Positions 12,824 through 62,645 of a stretch of 64,000 nt of DNA are shown here, piece by piece. The DNA lies in the sequence record NC_028448.1; one strand, given 5' to 3'. Under the pieces are notes generated by a model. That model ran no database searches. It was not told the origin of the DNA and was given only the letters and a program-made list of their open reading frames with translations. This DNA is from Escherichia phage slur14. The translations under genes and the position numbers were made by a program. How positions within the stretch are numbered: the first letter of the stretch is position 1; the number at the start of each line of letters is the position of its first letter.

Positions 12824-13507
12824 TTATCGTTTAATTGGAAGAGATAGAGGATCGCATTCTTCCTCTGACGGAGCATCTTCAAGACCCATAGCGTATCGCA
12901 AAGCATACTTCATCATCAGAATGTCTTTCGCACAGTCATGAATAGAATCATGTGCAACGAATCCATCTAAAGTTCCTTTTGGAAGAGGACACGTGGTCAT
13001 ATCACGAACAAGCAGAAGTGCTTCAATTCTGGTACGAATATCACGCTGATTCCAGAATTTACAAGGTTCTAACTTAAATGTATCAAGCTCATTCTCGGAA
13101 ACGCCGTTAAGACGTTGAATATCGCGAATGAGATCGACTAAAATTGGAAAATCAAACGACATTCCACGGCACCAACCTTGAGATTTCCAAGGATCGATGT
13201 TATGTGCATTGATGTAATCATTAAATTTTGCAATACCATCGATAGTGCTTACATCTTCATCGGATGGTGCAATATTTTTTCGAGCTTCAGGAGATTGATT
13301 CTTCCACCATTCGATAGTACTTTTAGTAAAAAGACGATGTCCTTTTTGGCTTTTTAAATCAAATTTGATTTTAATGCCACGTGAAACTAATTCATCAAAT
13401 GTTTCAACCACTTCTGGATTAGGGTCAAAAGCAATTACAGCTAAATCAATAACCGCTGCTTTTTCACCACTTCCCATTGTTTCAAAATCTATAATAAAAT
13501 CAAACAT
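12824..13507 (-). CDS. dexA: exonuclease A (DEDDh 3'-5' exonuclease)
   Basis: 227 aa; MFDFIIDFETMG...; length and sequence as T4 DexA from memory. Confidence 0.9.
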   Translation of the reverse strand: MFDFIIDFETMGSGEKAAVIDLAVIAFDPNPEVVETFDELVSRGIKIKFDLKSQKGHRLFTKSTIEWWKNQSPEARKNIAPSDEDVSTIDGIAKFNDYINAHNIDPWKSQGWCRGMSFDFPILVDLIRDIQRLNGVSENELDTFKLEPCKFWNQRDIRTRIEALLLVRDMTTCPLPKGTLDGFVAHDSIHDCAKDILMMKYALRYAMGLEDAPSEEECDPLSLPIKR

Positions 13508-56449: not shown

Positions 56450-56501
56450 TTCCTCCGTAGTTGATAGTTGTATAGTACCACAGAGGAACGGTCTTGTAAA
56501 C
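56450..56501 (-). promoter_or_regulatory. early promoter cassette
   Basis: Near-identical copy of the 2401 cassette. Confidence 0.6.
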
Positions 56502-56503
56502 AA

Positions 56504-56818
56504 CTAAAAGAAACTTCTTTCACAATTTTTTCCACTGAACCACGCACTCACTGCTTTCTTAGTCTCAGGAGCAGTGTTATCCATAAACCATTCAAAGGCA
56601 GCCTTTTTATGATTCTGGAGGGCTTCTCGGGCTTTAATCTGCTCACGGTCTATTAACACTAACACATGAGCCTTTCTTGTCACCAAGGGCTTCTTATGAT
56701 TCTTGGAGTATTCCCAGTCATTTGTCCAACGCATTGTCGTTGCGAACTGATGAACCGCGTCTTTAATTTTAGTTTCGTAAATTTCACGAGCCTTTGAGTA
56801 TAACATCACTACCTCCAT
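56504..56818 (-). CDS. hypothetical protein (104 aa)
   Basis: ORF track. Confidence 0.5.
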   Translation of the reverse strand: MEVVMLYSKAREIYETKIKDAVHQFATTMRWTNDWEYSKNHKKPLVTRKAHVLVLIDREQIKAREALQNHKKAAFEWFMDNTAPETKKAVSAWFSGKNCERSFF

Positions 56819-56907
56819 TTACCAGTTTAATTCTAATCATCTTTTTGATGGCAGTCCATATAATCTATTTCTGAACTGCCTTTTTGTCATAGAAGTCCTC
56901 TTATGAA

Positions 56908-57876
56908 TTATTTCAGAAGAGTAACCTCAGCGATTTCTTGCCAGCCGTTTTTGTCGGTCATAATAAAGTCAGCAAGATAAAGTGCAGTACGCAGTGAAAC
57001 ATTGCGTAAACGGTTAACATTGACTTTCATCCATGATAATGCTTTATAAGTTTCTTCATCAGAAAGACCGCGCTTTTGCATCATGTCGGTTGAAAGAATA
57101 ACATCTTCAACCCTGACCATAATTTCTTCATTAGTGTGAACACCCAAATCTAAATAAACTGAGCGGGACACTAATGCTTGTAAATGTGGAGCAAGTTTAG
57201 TACCACGGTCTAATTCGCGGTCAATGTCAACGTTTGTGATAAAAACAATCGTTCCTTTAAATTCAAACTCACGCTCAATGCCTTTTTCTTCTAAGTAAGA
57301 AGATGCAGTGCTCCAGCAGACTTTACGGGTCTCTCCGGTGTCCAGAGCGGCTTTTAGAAGATTAAGAATGTCCATATCAGAGAAAACATCCACATCATCA
57401 ATCAAAAGGACAGAATTCTCTTCACGATTATTCCAGAGCTGTTCATAAAGACCAATACCAGAGATTTTACCGTTAATGCTTTTATATTCAATGTATCCAT
57501 TATCATTTGCTTTATTCAAAGCTTTATCTAAAGAATACGTTTTACCAATACCCGCCGCACCAGAGATAATTAATGAACGAATGTTTCCGTTAATAATACC
57601 ATTCGTCATCATTCCCATAACATTAAATCTTTTATTAATGCGGGTTTTCATATCTTCATATGATTCTTTAACTTCTTCAACTTTTACACCATCATATGAA
57701 ATGTCTGATTTGTAAACCCAAACACCGCGACGTTTACCGTCAATTTCAACAAAAACTTTACCATCTCCTTGTGCATCTACCGGAGCATTATCTGGGAACC
57801 ATTCGCCTAAGAGCTCAAAAGTTCCAGAGATTTCTTTACCGAAGTAGATACCCTTATTGATAGTTACAGTTTTCAT
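56908..57876 (-). CDS. AAA+/P-loop ATPase (322 aa)
   Basis: Walker A GAAGIGKT and Walker B LLIDDVD. Confidence 0.65.
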   Translation of the reverse strand: MKTVTINKGIYFGKEISGTFELLGEWFPDNAPVDAQGDGKVFVEIDGKRRGVWVYKSDISYDGVKVEEVKESYEDMKTRINKRFNVMGMMTNGIINGNIRSLIISGAAGIGKTYSLDKALNKANDNGYIEYKSINGKISGIGLYEQLWNNREENSVLLIDDVDVFSDMDILNLLKAALDTGETRKVCWSTASSYLEEKGIEREFEFKGTIVFITNVDIDRELDRGTKLAPHLQALVSRSVYLDLGVHTNEEIMVRVEDVILSTDMMQKRGLSDEETYKALSWMKVNVNRLRNVSLRTALYLADFIMTDKNGWQEIAEVTLLK

Positions 57877-57933
57877 TTTATTCTCCTTTGATTTGATAGG
57901 ACTACTATAACATAGTCCTATCAGTTTGTATAC

Positions 57934-58134
57934 TTATTTTGACATTTCTTCGATGTCACGACGATACCCGTCACGAACTTCACGAAGAGCTTCAAGGCCA
58001 CACATAGGCTCGATACCAGTAATGTGAACTTGATTAATCTGATACTCTACATCTTCTAACTGAGCGAAAACATAACGACGTTCAGCTGCACAACCAGATT
58101 TAGCTTTACCGAAACGTTTATTCAAAGTAGTCAT
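57934..58134 (-). CDS. hypothetical protein (66 aa)
   Basis: ORF track; promoter cassette upstream. Confidence 0.5.
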   Translation of the reverse strand: MTTLNKRFGKAKSGCAAERRYVFAQLEDVEYQINQVHITGIEPMCGLEALREVRDGYRRDIEEMSK

Positions 58135-58159
58135 TTTGTATCTCCAATTTACTCATTTG

Positions 58160-58202
58160 TTTTGATAGGTCTATAGTATCAACAACTACAGACCATGTAA
58201 AC
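58160..58202 (-). promoter_or_regulatory. early promoter
   Basis: GTTTAC ... GATACTATAG on minus strand. Confidence 0.5.
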
Positions 58203-58205
58203 AAT

Positions 58206-58469
58206 TTATTTTAATTTTCGCCAAATTTTTACTGCTTCTCGCCTCGATACTTCTACGGCGCCAAGTTCTATAGCTTTTTGACGACGACTTGCACGTAAGT
58301 CATAATGTTTAATGCGTTTATCTTGAAACCAAGAACGTTTCATTCCTATTGCTTCTGCCATTTCGTGAAGCTCTTCAATATCTCCATCAGTGAACATATG
58401 ACAATTTTTAGTTGGATGACCGCGAAGTTTCCATCCATGATTCATTAAAACATCTACGTAAACTGTCAT
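58206..58469 (-). CDS. hypothetical protein (87 aa), DUF4031-like
   Basis: Pattern MFTDGD..EL...A..IG....WFQ....HYDL...R..AI..GA recalled as DUF4031-like. Confidence 0.45.
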   Translation of the reverse strand: MTVYVDVLMNHGWKLRGHPTKNCHMFTDGDIEELHEMAEAIGMKRSWFQDKRIKHYDLRASRRQKAIELGAVEVSRREAVKIWRKLK

Positions 58470-58615
58470 TGATTCTTCTCCAAATAAGTTTCGATAATTT
58501 TCTGGGCGAGATAAACCGCGTTATCTTCAGTTGCGTCTTCTAAGAAACTTTCAAAACACTCTGAAATTTCTTCTGTATCAATCAACTTTTTTACTTCAAT
58601 TGGTGTAATTTTCAT
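58466..58615 (-). CDS. small acidic protein (49 aa)
   Basis: Manual translation MKITPIEVKKLIDTEEISECF...; ATGA overlap with downstream gene. Confidence 0.35.
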   Translation of the reverse strand: MKITPIEVKKLIDTEEISECFESFLEDATEDNAVYLAQKIIETYLEKNQ

Positions 58616-58639
58616 TTTGTTTTCCGTTTAAGTGTTTGT

Positions 58640-58681
58640 TTTGATAGTTGTATAGTACCATAAAGCTTTATGCTTGTAAAC
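58640..58681 (-). promoter_or_regulatory. early promoter cassette
   Basis: GTTTAC ... TGGTACTATAC with AAAGCTTT palindrome. Confidence 0.55.
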
Positions 58682-58711
58682 AGTTTTGTGAAAAATTTTT
58701 GAAATAAAAAA

Positions 58712-58731
58712 AGGGAGCCTTCGGGCTCCCT
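58712..58731 (-). terminator. intrinsic terminator downstream of nucleotidyltransferase gene
   Basis: Minus strand AGGGAGCC-CGAA-GGCUCCCU followed by UUUUUUU. Confidence 0.65.
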
Positions 58732-58732
58732 A

Positions 58733-59746
58733 TCATTTATAATAGCTTCGGTGGTTTTCAAGATAAACCTTCTCAAGGAAGTCATCCCAGAAACCCATGT
58801 CTACTTTTTGCTGCATACCGTTCTTAGAAGCTTCAGTAGATGCTGCTTCTACTTGATCGACCACATCTTCCAAAAACTCTTGAACTGTTTTAAATGGGTG
58901 TTTACCCAACTTCACGTCGAGAATAAATGGAGCATCTTGGAGTGGATAAACCAAGTCACCAGTTTTGTAAATTTCCAATAGTTGGAGTCCACCACGGCAG
59001 GCATGGCTCAGAGCTTTCCAGTCAATGCCTTCATTGGCTTCGGCCTTACGAGCGCGTTCACCGTATTCAGCATCTAATTTGTTCAGTGACTGCTTAAGCT
59101 CAATAAGAGAAAGCGTTGTCTGATATTTACGACCCAACACAGTGTAGAACGTTTGTGGGCCTGTTTTCTCATGATTATGGAACACCCATTCACAGAATTC
59201 GTTTTCTGGAAGACGATGCTTAATATCTTCAACTTTAGTACGACGCTGCTTAATAGAACCATCTTCTTGGTAATCAATCCATTGCTCAGGGATTTGATTA
59301 ACTACTTTCAATACATCACGTAATGCAGCCAAACGAGAACCCTTGACGCCATATTTAGAAGCTTGCTTACGGACATATCCTAAATAGGATTTCATGTTAG
59401 TCGTATAAAAACGAGAACGGTTGTCTTGAATAAACTTCCACACATCAGGCAAATCAGATTTAACCACTAGTTCAGGTGGAGTGTGAAGCATATCCAATGC
59501 TACGGTTTCACCATCTGCTGCTAATTTAAAGAAATATTTAAGACTGTATAGTTCATGGTCAATATCATCTTTAGTGTTTTTAGATGATGTGTTGTTAGTG
59601 TTTTTACTCATATGCTCTTTAACATTTCCGATAAGAATATCGCGAGCAGGAGGAACAAAGATTTCTTTAAAATCTACATCAGATTCTGGGGTAGAAGTTC
59701 CATAAAGATGACTACCAAAATAGCTTTTCATTACTGTTTTCATCAT
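58733..59746 (-). CDS. Pol-beta-superfamily nucleotidyltransferase (337 aa)
   Basis: N-terminal FGSHLYGTSTPESDVDF fits G[SG]x(9-13)DxD NTase motif; terminator directly downstream. Confidence 0.6.
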   Translation of the reverse strand: MMKTVMKSYFGSHLYGTSTPESDVDFKEIFVPPARDILIGNVKEHMSKNTNNTSSKNTKDDIDHELYSLKYFFKLAADGETVALDMLHTPPELVVKSDLPDVWKFIQDNRSRFYTTNMKSYLGYVRKQASKYGVKGSRLAALRDVLKVVNQIPEQWIDYQEDGSIKQRRTKVEDIKHRLPENEFCEWVFHNHEKTGPQTFYTVLGRKYQTTLSLIELKQSLNKLDAEYGERARKAEANEGIDWKALSHACRGGLQLLEIYKTGDLVYPLQDAPFILDVKLGKHPFKTVQEFLEDVVDQVEAASTEASKNGMQQKVDMGFWDDFLEKVYLENHRSYYK

Positions 59747-60216
59747 TCAGCCTTATATTCAATAACAGGACATACTTTAGCTTTACGAGCTTTTAAAAAT
59801 TCGACGATAATCGATTTCTTAGGTTGAATAGGAGGTAAACCTTTATACGCCCTATCAATATTTTCTACGTGTAAAGCATAATCCTTTTTCCATTTATAAT
59901 CTTTATATTTTTCACGCAGTTGTGCAGGAATAACAAATGAACCGATAATAAGTAAAACAAGCAAAATGGCAAGTATAAATGCTGATGGAATAAGAGTCCA
60001 TAAACTACCAAAAATAAGCCATTTCTGCATGATTTCTGCGCAGATAATAGTTAGACCTACGAGTATAGTACATCCGAAAAAAGAAACGAAAAATGTAGGA
60101 ATAACAATAGACCAAAAATACGCGCACAGTGTCTTAGGTCGTTGCCATTCATCGTTAAACAATTTGAATAATTTATAGTGCCAAGAGTTTTCATTAATAA
60201 TCATAATTATAATCAT
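59743..60216 (-). CDS. membrane protein (157 aa, ~3 TM)
   Basis: Hydrophobic segments; ATGA overlap with nucleotidyltransferase gene. Confidence 0.55.
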   Translation of the reverse strand: MIIIMIINENSWHYKLFKLFNDEWQRPKTLCAYFWSIVIPTFFVSFFGCTILVGLTIICAEIMQKWLIFGSLWTLIPSAFILAILLVLLIIGSFVIPAQLREKYKDYKWKKDYALHVENIDRAYKGLPPIQPKKSIIVEFLKARKAKVCPVIEYKAE

Positions 60217-60734
60217 CCTTTCATTGAAGGCGTAACGGTTGTTAAATACTTAATCATAGCTTCAGCTTCTGATTTTGATAATGAAATTTCTCCATTGTTT
60301 TGACGAATAGAAATAAAATCCGGATGACGGTCACCACCGGCTTTTAAAACACACATATAAGTATCAGTTTCATCTTCAATATTTGAAATGATTGAAGCAG
60401 TTCCACACGAATGTGGTTTTTGATAAATCAATACAGCTTTTCTTCCACCATTTGACTGTTCATAAACTTTTAATACATCAAACAAATCACTTCTTTTATC
60501 AATAGCTAAAATGTTGTTTTCATCTTCAATGTTAAATCCTTCGGATACTTCATAAAGTGTCACCCATAAATCACCTATATCGATAGTAGCATTTTCCTTT
60601 CCATGACTTTCAAGAGCATGACAAATTTTCTTGATTTCGTCATAACTCATTTTAATAATATCATCTCCTTGACTAAGAAAGATGTCATTTTTAAATTCAA
60701 CACGAATTAAACCGCTTCCACTTGAAATAAACAT
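60213..60734 (-). CDS. hypothetical protein (173 aa), paralog of next ORF
   Basis: Shares GFNIEDE and C-terminal EA.A.IKYLTTVTPSM with 60741..61274. Confidence 0.55.
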   Translation of the reverse strand: MFISSGSGLIRVEFKNDIFLSQGDDIIKMSYDEIKKICHALESHGKENATIDIGDLWVTLYEVSEGFNIEDENNILAIDKRSDLFDVLKVYEQSNGGRKAVLIYQKPHSCGTASIISNIEDETDTYMCVLKAGGDRHPDFISIRQNNGEISLSKSEAEAMIKYLTTVTPSMKG

Positions 60735-60740
60735 ATTTCC

Positions 60741-61274
60741 TCACTTTGAAATCATAGTTGGAATGACAGAATCAAGATAAGTCTTTAACGCAATAGCTTC
60801 GTCTTTGGTAAATGTGACAATATGCGCTCGAAAATCATCAATTTGACGAATAGTTAAGACATCTCCATCTTCATAACATTTTGATACATTTAAAACAGTT
60901 TCATCATTCTGATTGCAAGCGTTAGTAATAATAGCATTGCAATTTTTGAGCCATTTTAAACTATGTTTTCTTTCATTAGAATAATAAAAATATTTAATCT
61001 TAGCTATAAAACTATCCCAATGGATAACTGATAAGCATATTGACTCGCTTTCAATGTTAAATCCTGGGCATAAAGAATAGAAATGAATTTTATGCTCATC
61101 ATTAATGCTTACAATTTTATCAGTGTAAGGTTTTTCAATTTGGGTTAAATGAATAATTTCGCTAGGCGTAAAATATAGCATATCGTCTTCTTGCGTCAAA
61201 CGATACATATTATTTACTTTTTCTATAGCCAATTCACCAAAAAATGAACTAACTTCTAATACTAATCGTTTCAT
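60741..61274 (-). CDS. hypothetical protein (177 aa), paralog of previous ORF
   Basis: Shares GFNIESE and C-terminal EAIALKTYLDSVIPTM. Confidence 0.55.
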   Translation of the reverse strand: MKRLVLEVSSFFGELAIEKVNNMYRLTQEDDMLYFTPSEIIHLTQIEKPYTDKIVSINDEHKIHFYSLCPGFNIESESICLSVIHWDSFIAKIKYFYYSNERKHSLKWLKNCNAIITNACNQNDETVLNVSKCYEDGDVLTIRQIDDFRAHIVTFTKDEAIALKTYLDSVIPTMISK

Positions 61275-61275
61275 A

Positions 61276-61554
61276 TTAATCCTTTTTATTTGCGCTGATT
61301 TGTTCTAAAATTTTAGAGTATTCCTTTGTATCAGATTTACGTACAATTGATACACTATAAGGCATACTATCGGTGTCTTTTATAAAGCGTTCCAAATGAC
61401 ACTCTAACAAAATTTCTGGATTATAAATCGTGTACATCAAATTACCTGTTGCTCCACGATATTGGCAGATTTCTACTGATTGAACACCATTCCATAATTT
61501 TGTTAAAACTAAGTCACCTACTTCTAATTTAGGAAAACTCATATTATTCACCAA
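61276..61554 (-). CDS. hypothetical protein (92 aa)
   Basis: ORF track. Confidence 0.5.
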   Translation of the reverse strand: MVNNMSFPKLEVGDLVLTKLWNGVQSVEICQYRGATGNLMYTIYNPEILLECHLERFIKDTDSMPYSVSIVRKSDTKEYSKILEQISANKKD

Positions 61555-61729
61555 TTAAAGTTTCAATATAAGAATCAAGATTTACTTTAGCTTCTTCCAT
61601 AAGAGTTTTGTATTTAATCTTGTTAGCATGTCCGGAGAAAGCTGATTCATCAATAATTGTTGATGTATGAACAGCTTTACTATACGTCTCAATTAATTCT
61701 CTTAATTTAAAAGCCTGCTCACTTGTCAT
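61544..61729 (-). CDS. small helical protein (61 aa)
   Basis: N-terminus MTSEQAFKLRELIETY resembles neighbouring small ORFs. Confidence 0.5.
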   Translation of the reverse strand: MTSEQAFKLRELIETYSKAVHTSTIIDESAFSGHANKIKYKTLMEEAKVNLDSYIETLIGE

Positions 61730-61849
61730 TACATACTCCTTTGAATAATATCAATAATGTTGTTCACCAGATTATAAGTAAACATTGGGTAATTATATTG
61801 AATCATCACATACACAACAAACAAAACTTTCATTCTCTTCTCCTTGGCA

Positions 61850-61891
61850 GTTGACAAGATTACTATACCATAACCTTGCCAACTTGTAAAC
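61850..61891 (-). promoter_or_regulatory. early promoter cassette
   Basis: GTTTAC ... TGGTATAGT with flanking inverted repeat. Confidence 0.55.
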
Positions 61892-61893
61892 CA

Positions 61894-62040
61894 TTAAATG
61901 ACGTTTTCAATAAAATTCTGAAGCTTTGTGTGAGCATCAACCATGATTTTCATTTCTTCTTTTGCGAAAGCTGTACCTCTTTCCCGAGCAGAATACTCAT
62001 AGTCAGAAACTGCATTAGCATATTCTTCAATTAGTTTCAT
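61894..62040 (-). CDS. small protein (48 aa)
   Basis: Manual translation MKLIEEYANAVSDYEYSARERG...; weak SD. Confidence 0.3.
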   Translation of the reverse strand: MKLIEEYANAVSDYEYSARERGTAFAKEEMKIMVDAHTKLQNFIENVI

Positions 62041-62056
62041 TAAAAACATCTGCTTT

Positions 62057-62251
62057 TCAGTTTTCATTATTCCACCTAATCATTTCAAGATATTGAACTA
62101 ACTTAGCTTTAGATTTATCCAAATCCTTTTTAGCTGCTTCTATACCGTCGTATGAATATCCTTCACAATGCTCAACTGCTAATTGATATGAATCTATTTC
62201 AATATCACGTGCTAATTTAATGATTTTTTCAAACTGTTCGCGTGTTAGCAT
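62057..62251 (-). CDS. small helical protein (64 aa)
   Basis: MLTREQFEKIIKLARDIEID... Confidence 0.5.
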   Translation of the reverse strand: MLTREQFEKIIKLARDIEIDSYQLAVEHCEGYSYDGIEAAKKDLDKSKAKLVQYLEMIRWNNEN

Positions 62252-62253
62252 AC

Positions 62254-62457
62254 TTAAACTCTCGTATTATGATCGATAATTTCATCAAGAAACATATCTA
62301 ACGCTTCTAAAGCATTATCCACTTTAGTTTCAAAGTCTTTAATGCCTTTATTCGAAATACCCGATGAATACCAAGCAAAGTTAATGCGCTCCTCGTCTGC
62401 TTTACGAATTAAAGCTACCAATTCCTTAATTTTATCAGCTTGTTCGATACTAATCAT
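62254..62457 (-). CDS. small helical protein (67 aa)
   Basis: Track ORF trimmed to [15 protein letters not shown]. Confidence 0.45.
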   Translation of the reverse strand: MISIEQADKIKELVALIRKADEERINFAWYSSGISNKGIKDFETKVDNALEALDMFLDEIIDHNTRV

Positions 62458-62645
62458 TATTCCACCACATATGAAAGAGAGAATATTGCACACGCCATGT
62501 GAGTTGCAACTTCATCACACATATTATAACGTTTCTTAAGAAGTTCTACAAGTTCTTCACTAGTAACTTCATCCATGTCGACGAAAAAATCACCATTAAT
62601 GATGACGTAGATATTTCCTTCTTGATTGAGTGCTTCAATTTTCAT
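62457..62645 (-). CDS. small acidic protein (62 aa)
   Basis: Track ORF trimmed to MKIEALNQ; promoter cassette upstream. Confidence 0.5.

Follow-up and report, generated by a model that had tools for sequence, protein, structure and literature searches.

The nrdC.11 neighbourhood of a T4-like phage: an RlaP-family nucleotidyltransferase with a predicted role in RNA-end repair, within a gene order that is conserved yet plastic

RNA repair was first discovered in phage T4, in which Pnkp and Rnl1 act against the PrrC nuclease, and host nucleases of the RloC type are thought to defeat this repair through removal of an extra nucleotide. Here we consider a candidate for an additional repair enzyme, the product of the nrdC.11 gene, together with its neighbours in a stretch of 64,000 nucleotides (the window) from Escherichia phage slur14 (NC_028448.1). 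The gene is the last of four that are packed between positions 61274 and 58733; the whole block lies on the minus strand in window coordinates, so that open reading frames (ORFs) quoted from high to low run 5' to 3'. The nucleotidyltransferase (NTase) family to which it belongs, PF10127, was reportedly named 'RlaP' by Burroughs and Aravind for its gene neighbourhood beside RNA ligase genes.

An earlier note on this DNA, made from the letters alone, named no characterised T-even function for the block. However, its last gene is T4 nrdC.11, for which a match to the COG3541 nucleotidyltransferase domain was published in 2006 (PMC1524935) and which was later placed in RlaP. In a survey of jumbo phages, Burroughs and Aravind predict that phage RlaP restores the nucleotides removed by RloC-type nucleases before ligation (PMC7824862). 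Biochemical data come from a December 2025 preprint by Carruthers, Fatma and Huang, in which two Pseudomonas RlaP enzymes add one or two nucleoside monophosphates (NMPs) to RNA 3'-OH ends, with Mn2+ preferred and no action on DNA or protein (PMC12776372). RlaP prefers the broken end of a cleaved-tRNA mimic, and partly restores aminoacylation of a tRNA missing one anticodon-loop nucleotide (PMC12776372). A crystal structure of PfRlaP in the same preprint has an NTase domain and a C-terminal helical domain forming a cleft, and 'T4NrdC.11' is explicitly named as an RlaP family member, although in a different cluster of the sequence similarity network (SSN), cluster 5 as against 1a for the characterised enzymes (PMC12776372).

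The 2.8-kb stretch containing the four genes is 100% identical to Escherichia phage slur03 (Tequatrovirus) and 95–99% identical to hundreds of T-even relatives. The last gene (58733..59746) encodes a 337-aa protein, the ortholog of T4 NrdC.11 (NP_049709), to which it is 98% identical. The earlier note had described this protein as a Pol-beta-type nucleotidyltransferase with a good active-site motif, and both points are borne out. The motif FGSHLYGTSTPESDVDF is present at residues 10–26, and the protein matches PF10127 (Pfam title RlaP, 'RNA repair pathway DNA polymerase beta family') with an E-value of 2.5e-11 and 44.2 bits against a cut-off of 23. The profile aligns to residues 7–135 only, the N-terminal third of the protein; over its full length NrdC.11 matches phrog_388 'nucleotidyltransferase'. 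An exhaustive search of 1.84 billion cluster representatives returned 3428 relatives at E<=1e-3, and PF10127 is matched by all 66 of the homologs that were aligned. Within this alignment (34–55% identity) G11, S12, G16, S22, D23, D25, N57, D63, Y132, R231, H248, R251, P268 and K279 are invariant, and D61 and D85 are conserved in at least 90% of the homologs. The two presumed catalytic aspartates, D23 and D25, whose conservation the note had proposed as a check, are thus retained throughout, as are G11, S12 and D63. These residues are predicted to constitute the Pol-beta G-S turn, the DxD pair and the third carboxylate, with the remainder including basic residues in the helical part. The AlphaFold model has a predicted local distance difference test score (pLDDT) of 94; in it an alpha/beta NTase domain at the N-terminus is accompanied by helical bundles and by a beta-rich insert (about residues 155–209), so that the catalytic fold holds and not the non-catalytic one that would have undone the assignment. 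No match to PDB chains was found with either the single sequence or the family profile, in a PDB copy that appears to lack the PfRlaP structure, and NCBIfam and PADLOC scans of all proteins gave nothing useful. Among 50,697 phage records searched by tblastn (counted as records, with about 30 loci inspected), NrdC.11 is present in 1516, and is full-length in 1442 of these at identities down to about 30%. NrdC.11 is a member of a known family with a published and plausible role in RNA-end repair, a role that is predicted for the phage.

Because the Pfam model covers only the N-terminal third, the RNA-repair context was examined using full-length NrdC.11-like proteins. Taking one genome per prokaryotic species gave 80 cellular loci, whose NrdC.11-like products align over practically their full length at 32–54% identity; neighbours were clustered into recurrent families and repair genes counted by tblastn within 6 kb. 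At 17 of the 80 loci there is a gene for a Pnkp ligase, Hen1, RtcB, Ro60/TROVE, Rnl1-like or Pnk-like protein no more than 6 kb away, and such genes are found at 10 of the 42 loci with complete flanks. One example each was confirmed with Pfam for the Pnkp ligase (E 3e-178), Hen1 (E 3e-112), RtcB (E 2e-132) and Ro60/TROVE (E 5e-37). The association with RNA-repair genes that characterises RlaP is therefore seen in the cellular homologs of the NrdC.11 subgroup, and what is new here is that this subgroup, beyond the Pseudomonas-type RlaP, adjoins RNA-repair genes in cellular genomes. Of the phage neighbourhood, neither the membrane protein nor MobD.1, the Tudor protein or the NrdC.10 ATPase is nearby at any of the 80 loci. 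A separate observation is that at 18 of the 80 a second RlaP-like paralog lies directly downstream on the same strand, to give a tandem nucleotidyltransferase pair.

NrdC.11 resembles RlaP in its PF10127 match and in the G-S...DxD...D catalytic set, and its subgroup resembles RlaP in having cellular members beside RNA ligases. The modelled layout, with the NTase domain at the N-terminus and helices towards the C-terminus, may correspond as well. It differs from the characterised enzymes in its SSN cluster, in the restricted Pfam coverage and in the beta-rich insert, and the phage gene is not in an operon with a ligase. The slur03 genome encodes both an Rnl1 RNA ligase and a polynucleotide kinase (Pnk), located about 80 kb from NrdC.11. 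The T4 pathway in which these two enzymes counter the PrrC anticodon nuclease needs 3'-OH and 5'-phosphate ends and RlaP leaves a 3'-OH, such that the 5'-phosphate-ligase chemistry of Rnl1 and Pnk is compatible with an RlaP product. NrdC.11 is no known component of this pathway, and its role in refilling RloC-trimmed tRNA is a prediction (PMC7824862).

We propose that NrdC.11 is an accessory RNA-end-repair enzyme with a counter-defence role, in which both the RNA substrate and the repair function in phage are presumed by analogy. By comparison with Pseudomonas RlaP, NrdC.11, which is predicted to be active, would extend the 3'-OH end of broken RNA by one or two untemplated NMPs. When a host anticodon nuclease of the RloC type both cuts and trims a tRNA, NrdC.11 would refill it, and the refilled tRNA would then be sealed by the phage Pnkp and Rnl1 encoded elsewhere in the genome. 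The proposal builds on what was observed for gene identities, family membership, conserved catalytic residues, fold, cellular RNA-repair neighbourhoods and the unequal distributions of the genes. The earlier note had suggested nucleotide signalling, host modification or anti-defence; anti-defence is plausible in the form of RNA repair, but nucleotide signalling is unsupported, as there are no PADLOC matches and the cellular homologs adjoin RNA-repair genes and never the membrane protein of the block. We give a probability of roughly 0.6 to this explanation as a whole, which includes the view that the block lies at the promoter-distal end of an early transcription unit, within the variable tk–nrdC region of this T4-like phage.

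Several points weigh against it. For RlaP itself the repair role is no more than 'potential' in the words of the one preprint that describes it, with activity shown for two Pseudomonas enzymes only (PMC12776372). The C-terminal two thirds of NrdC.11, including the beta-rich insert, are outside the Pfam model, and because they belong to a separate subgroup (SSN cluster 5) the choice of substrate could differ. In the phage, NrdC.11 is adjacent to neither ligase nor kinase. T4 mutants missing nrdC.11–mobD.3 are viable (PMC9825161), which fits an accessory role and gives no positive support. Finally, the repair model leaves unexplained a conserved order of genes for a y05I_C protein, a membrane protein and the NTase in four genera, and of the membrane protein and NTase genes in an Acinetobacter straboviral phage.

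A different possibility is that NrdC.11 is active but acts on something other than trimmed anticodon loops, such as the 3'-CCA of tRNA (by mending or tailing), host or phage RNAs tagged for stability, or a protein or small molecule that is nucleotidylated. Besides fragments, RNAs of the size of rRNA and of full-length tRNA are labelled by RlaP, which has little nucleoside triphosphate specificity (PMC12776372), and the distinct C-terminal half of the NrdC.11 subgroup outside the Pfam model leaves room for another substrate. However, the RlaP enzymes tested left E. coli proteins and DNA unmodified (PMC12776372), and the cellular NrdC.11-type genes are found with Pnkp/Hen1, RtcB and Ro60, pointing to break repair and RNA quality control, rather than with CCA-maturation or antibiotic-resistance genes. 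We consider a target of this kind possible, but rather unlikely.

The earlier note had treated the four genes as a cassette, and their distributions bear this out only in part, since the order is conserved but the distributions are nested and unequal and T4 lacks the two middle genes. In the same phage records the tblastn counts are 1310 for NrdC.10, 890 for the membrane protein, 725 for MobD.1 and 458 for the second MobD.1-type paralog. Of the 584 records that match the 2.8-kb query (window 58600–61400), 379 cover at least 80% of it. The order in Mosigvirus is MobD.1-like, membrane, NTase; in Jiaodavirus and Kanagawavirus it is (Tudor), stand-alone y05I_C, membrane, one or two small ORFs, and NTase; and in Acinetobacter Lazarusvirus a zinc-finger protein is followed by membrane, a small ORF, NTase and NrdC.10. 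An Erythrobacter phage and a KVP40-like Vibrio phage have the NTase and no membrane gene. The order y05I_C protein, membrane protein, NTase is thus recurrent in four Tevenvirinae genera. The membrane protein led to 20 IMG/VR loci; at 13 of them the NTase follows 0–1.7 kb downstream and NrdC.10 comes after it, with a y05I or y05I_C gene directly upstream in 12 of these 13. At the other seven, which are more distant, the membrane gene is present but there is no NTase within 5 kb. The linkage is real within Tevenvirinae but is not obligate, and is inseparable here from inherited gene order; a role for the membrane protein as universal NTase partner is ruled out by T4, by the cellular loci and by the seven phage loci. 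The four genes adjoin one another in an order that is conserved yet plastic, and they do not constitute an obligate four-component machine.

This linkage is nonetheless what favours an alternative in which the products of the y05I-domain, membrane-protein and NTase genes would work together as a single module at the membrane, for example as a pair like that of Hailong, where one operon of two genes encodes a transmembrane protein and an NTase (PMC13434031). An oligonucleotide made by the NTase would gate, or act as a decoy for, a membrane channel, and the phage would mimic or neutralise a defence of the HalA/HalB type. In both systems the membrane-protein gene is followed by the NTase gene, and the former is directly or closely upstream of the latter in Tequatrovirus, Mosigvirus, Jiaodavirus, Kanagawavirus and the Acinetobacter phage, with overlap of start and stop codons in slur03 and ST0; the 13 linked IMG/VR loci, with their y05I or y05I_C genes, point the same way. 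However, the likeness of NrdC.11 to HalB is at the level of fold only, without sequence similarity or a PDB match by sequence or profile; all of its homologs are PF10127, and the phage NTase is in a different family from HalB, one that is associated with RNA repair. Nor is the pairing obligate as in Hailong, as the NTase is without the membrane gene in T4 and at the 80 cellular loci, where neither MobD.1, the Tudor gene nor the AAA gene is nearby and RNA-repair genes are found instead, and the membrane protein is without the NTase at the seven distant phage loci. At 153 aa the phage membrane protein, the putative counterpart of HalA, is small, and it is matched in neither Pfam nor PADLOC. PADLOC gave no matches, though its 2023 library may predate Hailong, and a conserved order inside one virus family may be mere inheritance. 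Such a module would come close to the nucleotide signalling suggested in the earlier note, in favour of which there is just the fold-level likeness to HalB. A Hailong-like or other one-module arrangement seems improbable. There is a still slimmer chance that the conserved y05I_C–membrane–RlaP-type NTase order marks a membrane-associated nucleic-acid module instead of a soluble repair enzyme with chance neighbours; as an example, a short oligonucleotide made by the phage, or the modification of RNA ends, could be coupled to the membrane protein as a decoy or antidote for Hailong-like host channels gated by oligonucleotides, with the PUR-like protein holding the single-stranded product.

The membrane protein is encoded by the third ORF (59743..60216), for which hydropathy and a match to phrog_944 'membrane protein' (E 6.5e-50) agree. 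It has two long hydrophobic stretches, at about residues 29–64 and 66–102, and basic residues at both termini. The earlier note counted about three transmembrane helices, but by the positive-inside rule an even number (two or four), with both ends cytoplasmic, is more likely. No family was found for it in Pfam, NCBIfam or PADLOC, nor in Pfam for four diverse homologs. The homologs detected are in phages only, and at 24–33% identity they share invariant N-terminal I-N-x-x-S-W-H...P-x-x-L-C-x-Y and C-terminal K-A-x-x-x-K-x-C residues, which in the protein here belong to an N-terminal INxNSWHY...LCxY motif and a basic C-terminal KA[KR]xxKxC motif. This is a widespread phage family without a Pfam model. 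The seven distant loci are from large phages, one of them with a high G+C content, and their membrane proteins carry INKSSWHY...LCPY and LKAKKxKxCP.

The first two ORFs were said in the earlier note to be diverged paralogs sharing GFNIE[SD]E, and the comparison agrees. The first (60741..61274, 177 aa) is the ortholog of MobD.1, with 82% identity to the T4 protein, and the second (60213..60734, 173 aa) is a further member of the y05I family that is absent from T4. They are 28% identical over 175 columns (E 9e-11), contain the forms GFNIESE and GFNIEDE, and both have the domains PF24449 and PF24448 (E 7e-33 and 4e-23 in the 173-aa protein). These are T4_y05I_N and T4_y05I_C, the N- and C-terminal domains of a 'y05I-like putative transcription factor'. 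The y05I-type family is narrow, with 38 clusters, all T-even-like, in a search of 5.8 billion proteins; the second paralog is confined to a subset of Tequatrovirus, with about 432 of its 458 records at 80% identity or above. A metagenomic 179-aa protein has an N-terminal part from MobD.1 and a C-terminal part from the 173-aa paralog, and looks like a product of recombination between the tandem paralogs with deletion of one copy.

In the MobD.1 model the confident N-terminal 100 residues form two beta-beta-beta-beta-alpha repeats paired into one domain. Repeats of this type make up the PC4-like fold of single-stranded DNA and RNA binders (PMC7549692), and in using two of them to build an N-terminal domain MobD.1 is like Pur-alpha, the Whirly proteins (PBF-2 p24, StWhy2), trypanosome MRP1/MRP2 and Borrelia Bpur. 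The fold is common to these, although family membership is not: at E<=0.1 neither MobD.1 nor its paralog matches the PUR or Whirly families of Pfam, and only PF24449, PF24448 and a weak DUF7189 were found. MobD.1 and the paralog are modelled as proteins of the PC4/PUR/Whirly fold, and probably bind single-stranded RNA or DNA. The C-terminal T4_y05I_C domain, which also occurs as stand-alone proteins of 71–76 aa in other genera, has a similar beta-beta-beta-beta-alpha pattern but with a pLDDT of only about 50. This third pattern parallels the dimerising repeat III that Pur-alpha has beside repeats I–II (PMC7549692). An internal-repeat test of MobD.1 with hhalign gave a weak match of repeat 1 to the C-terminal domain (E 0.005, probability 7%), aligning LTQEDD...FTPSE with IRQIDD...FTKDE, which is suggestive but no proof. 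The pattern and the stand-alone occurrence fit a C-terminal domain that would serve as a dimerising third repeat in the style of Pur-alpha, though the repeat signal in the sequence is weak.

All four minus-strand ORFs listed in the earlier note were found: 61274..60741 (177 aa), 60734..60213 (173 aa), 60216..59743 (157 aa) and 59746..58733 (337 aa). The packing was described as 4-nt overlaps or 6-nt gaps, and between the ORFs a 6-nt gap and then two ATGA overlaps are present, but the overlap at the membrane protein is likely an 8-nt gap. Because all homologs of this protein begin uniformly with M-x-I-N-x-N/S-S-W-H, its start is most likely the ATG at 60204, as in the RefSeq annotation (153 aa), which leaves an 8-nt gap to the paralog gene. 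NrdC.11 starts at 59743 in RefSeq and T4 (336 aa), one codon later than the 337-aa ORF. The RefSeq labels of the four are 'nucleotidyltransferase', two hypothetical proteins, and one mis-named 'molybdopterin-guanine dinucleotide biosynthesis protein MobD'.

The block ends at an intrinsic terminator (58712..58731, minus strand) with an 8-bp stem, six pairs of which are G-C, the loop CGAA and a run of seven T; as is typical of Rho-independent terminators, a G+C-rich hairpin is followed by TTTTTTT on the transcribed strand. It folds with -14.9 kcal/mol (z -3.6), and none of 200 shuffles folds as well. The earlier note called it the strongest terminator in the window, and in a scan of the window for compact hairpins with T-runs it does rank first, by a slight margin over the next at -13.2 and -13.0 kcal/mol. 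The unit was also said to comprise four genes. The tight packing is as described, but the unit is longer, as mobD.2, a 61-aa ORF and a Tudor-domain ORF precede MobD.1, are tightly packed too, and follow a promoter-like site. This early-promoter-like site (61862..61890, minus strand), the probable start of the unit, has TTTACA, 17 nt and TATAGT with an extended -10 TG, matches the sigma-70 consensus at 10 of 12 positions plus the TG, and reads GTTTACAAG...TGGTATAGT. A pattern search of the block found no MotA-type middle or late promoters. The next early-promoter-like site (58652..58680, minus strand; TTTACA, 17 nt, TACTAT, with TG) would start the following unit, and is kept in T4 upstream of nrdC.10. 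With these sites used as presumed, the unit would run from the promoter through mobD.2, the 61-aa ORF, the Tudor protein, MobD.1, its paralog, the membrane protein and NrdC.11 to the terminator.

Two other candidates near the end of the unit were set aside. The sole match in an Rfam scan of 56500–62500 was an L20_leader across the end of nrdC.11 and the terminator (58699..58860, minus strand), which scores 26 bits, well under the gathering threshold of 58.7 (E 0.055), and is most likely due to chance. A 57-aa ORF at 58612..58785 is probably no gene, as it spans the terminator hairpin and has no annotation in the slur03 RefSeq record.

In T4 the order is mobD.2, mobD.1, mobD (an HNH homing endonuclease), nrdC.11, the terminator and nrdC.10. 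The strand, the upstream mobD.2, the terminator hairpin and the following early promoter are common to T4 and slur03, but in slur03 the paralog and the membrane gene occupy the place of T4 mobD. slur03 also has the 61-aa ORF and Tudor gene between mobD.2 and mobD.1, and three small genes, including one for a DUF4031 protein, after the terminator, none of which is in T4. Four of the slur03 genes, those for the paralog of 173 aa, the membrane protein, the Tudor protein and the 61-aa ORF, are without counterparts at the T4 locus. That the block has no coherent function, being a set of dispensable and drifting ORFs in a hyperplastic region with the NTase motif a relic, is very improbable: such gene gain and loss, with a homing endonuclease in T4 instead, the chimeric MobD.1/paralog protein and the viable T4 deletions of nrdC.11–mobD.3 (PMC9825161) would suit it, but NrdC.11 is full-length in 1442 of 1516 records at identities down to about 30%, all of its catalytic residues are invariant, and the membrane protein motifs are invariant at 24–33% identity. 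The terminator stem is identical in slur03 and T4 (T4 stretch about 13410..13430), and because the 4-nt loop is reverse-complemented (CGAA in one, TTCG in the other), the whole palindrome is flipped between the two.

Upstream, the mobD.2 ortholog (61729..61833, minus strand, 34 aa) has a translation, MKVLFVVYVMIQYNYPMFTYNLVNNIIDIIQRSM, near-identical to T4 MobD.2, and an AAGGAG ribosome-binding site; it is missing from the annotation of the slur03 record. Further upstream is a 57-aa ORF (62067..61894), the first two thirds of which are matched by T4 MobD.2a (38 aa) before that protein diverges and ends early. The 61-aa ORF (61544..61729, minus strand) matches phrog_4859 (E 5e-39) and has no tblastn match at the T4 locus. 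The Tudor-domain ORF (61276..61554, minus strand; RefSeq start 61542, 88 aa) matches PF24144 Phage_tudor (E 2.7e-40), and has an equivalent place upstream of the y05I_C gene in loci of the Kanagawavirus type. Downstream, the three small genes at 58206..58469 (minus strand), 58466..58615 and 57934..58134 lie between the terminator and promoter and nrdC.10, with the DUF4031 match at E 7e-22. NrdC.10 (56908..57876, minus strand) is an AAA/STAND-like ATPase by weak AAA and nSTAND Pfam matches, in a separate transcription unit. It follows NrdC.11 at all of the linked straboviral loci inspected, with 13 of 13 in IMG/VR, and may be a better candidate for an NTase partner than the upstream genes, but for its separate unit and its absence from the cellular loci. 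Annotation errors have propagated in the region: MobD.1 and MobD.4 are 'molybdopterin-guanine dinucleotide biosynthesis protein MobD' in the slur03 RefSeq and many GenBank records, NrdC.11 and NrdC.10 are 'thioredoxin' in many records, and the 61-aa ORF is a 'helicase loader'.

Overall, the first reading of this stretch was a correct account of a known region, with an interpretation that is partly supported. The idea that RlaP refills trimmed tRNA has already been predicted by others and the window adds no new concept to it; the additions are modest, being the cellular RNA-repair neighbourhood and conserved catalytic residues of the NrdC.11 subgroup, a PUR/Whirly-type fold predicted for MobD.1, and the recognition that the 'cassette' is a variable neighbourhood with no fixed module. 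If NrdC.11 does refill the trimmed position, it would complete the phage repair pathway as its missing third enzyme, and would represent a further round in the arms race between these phages and their hosts.

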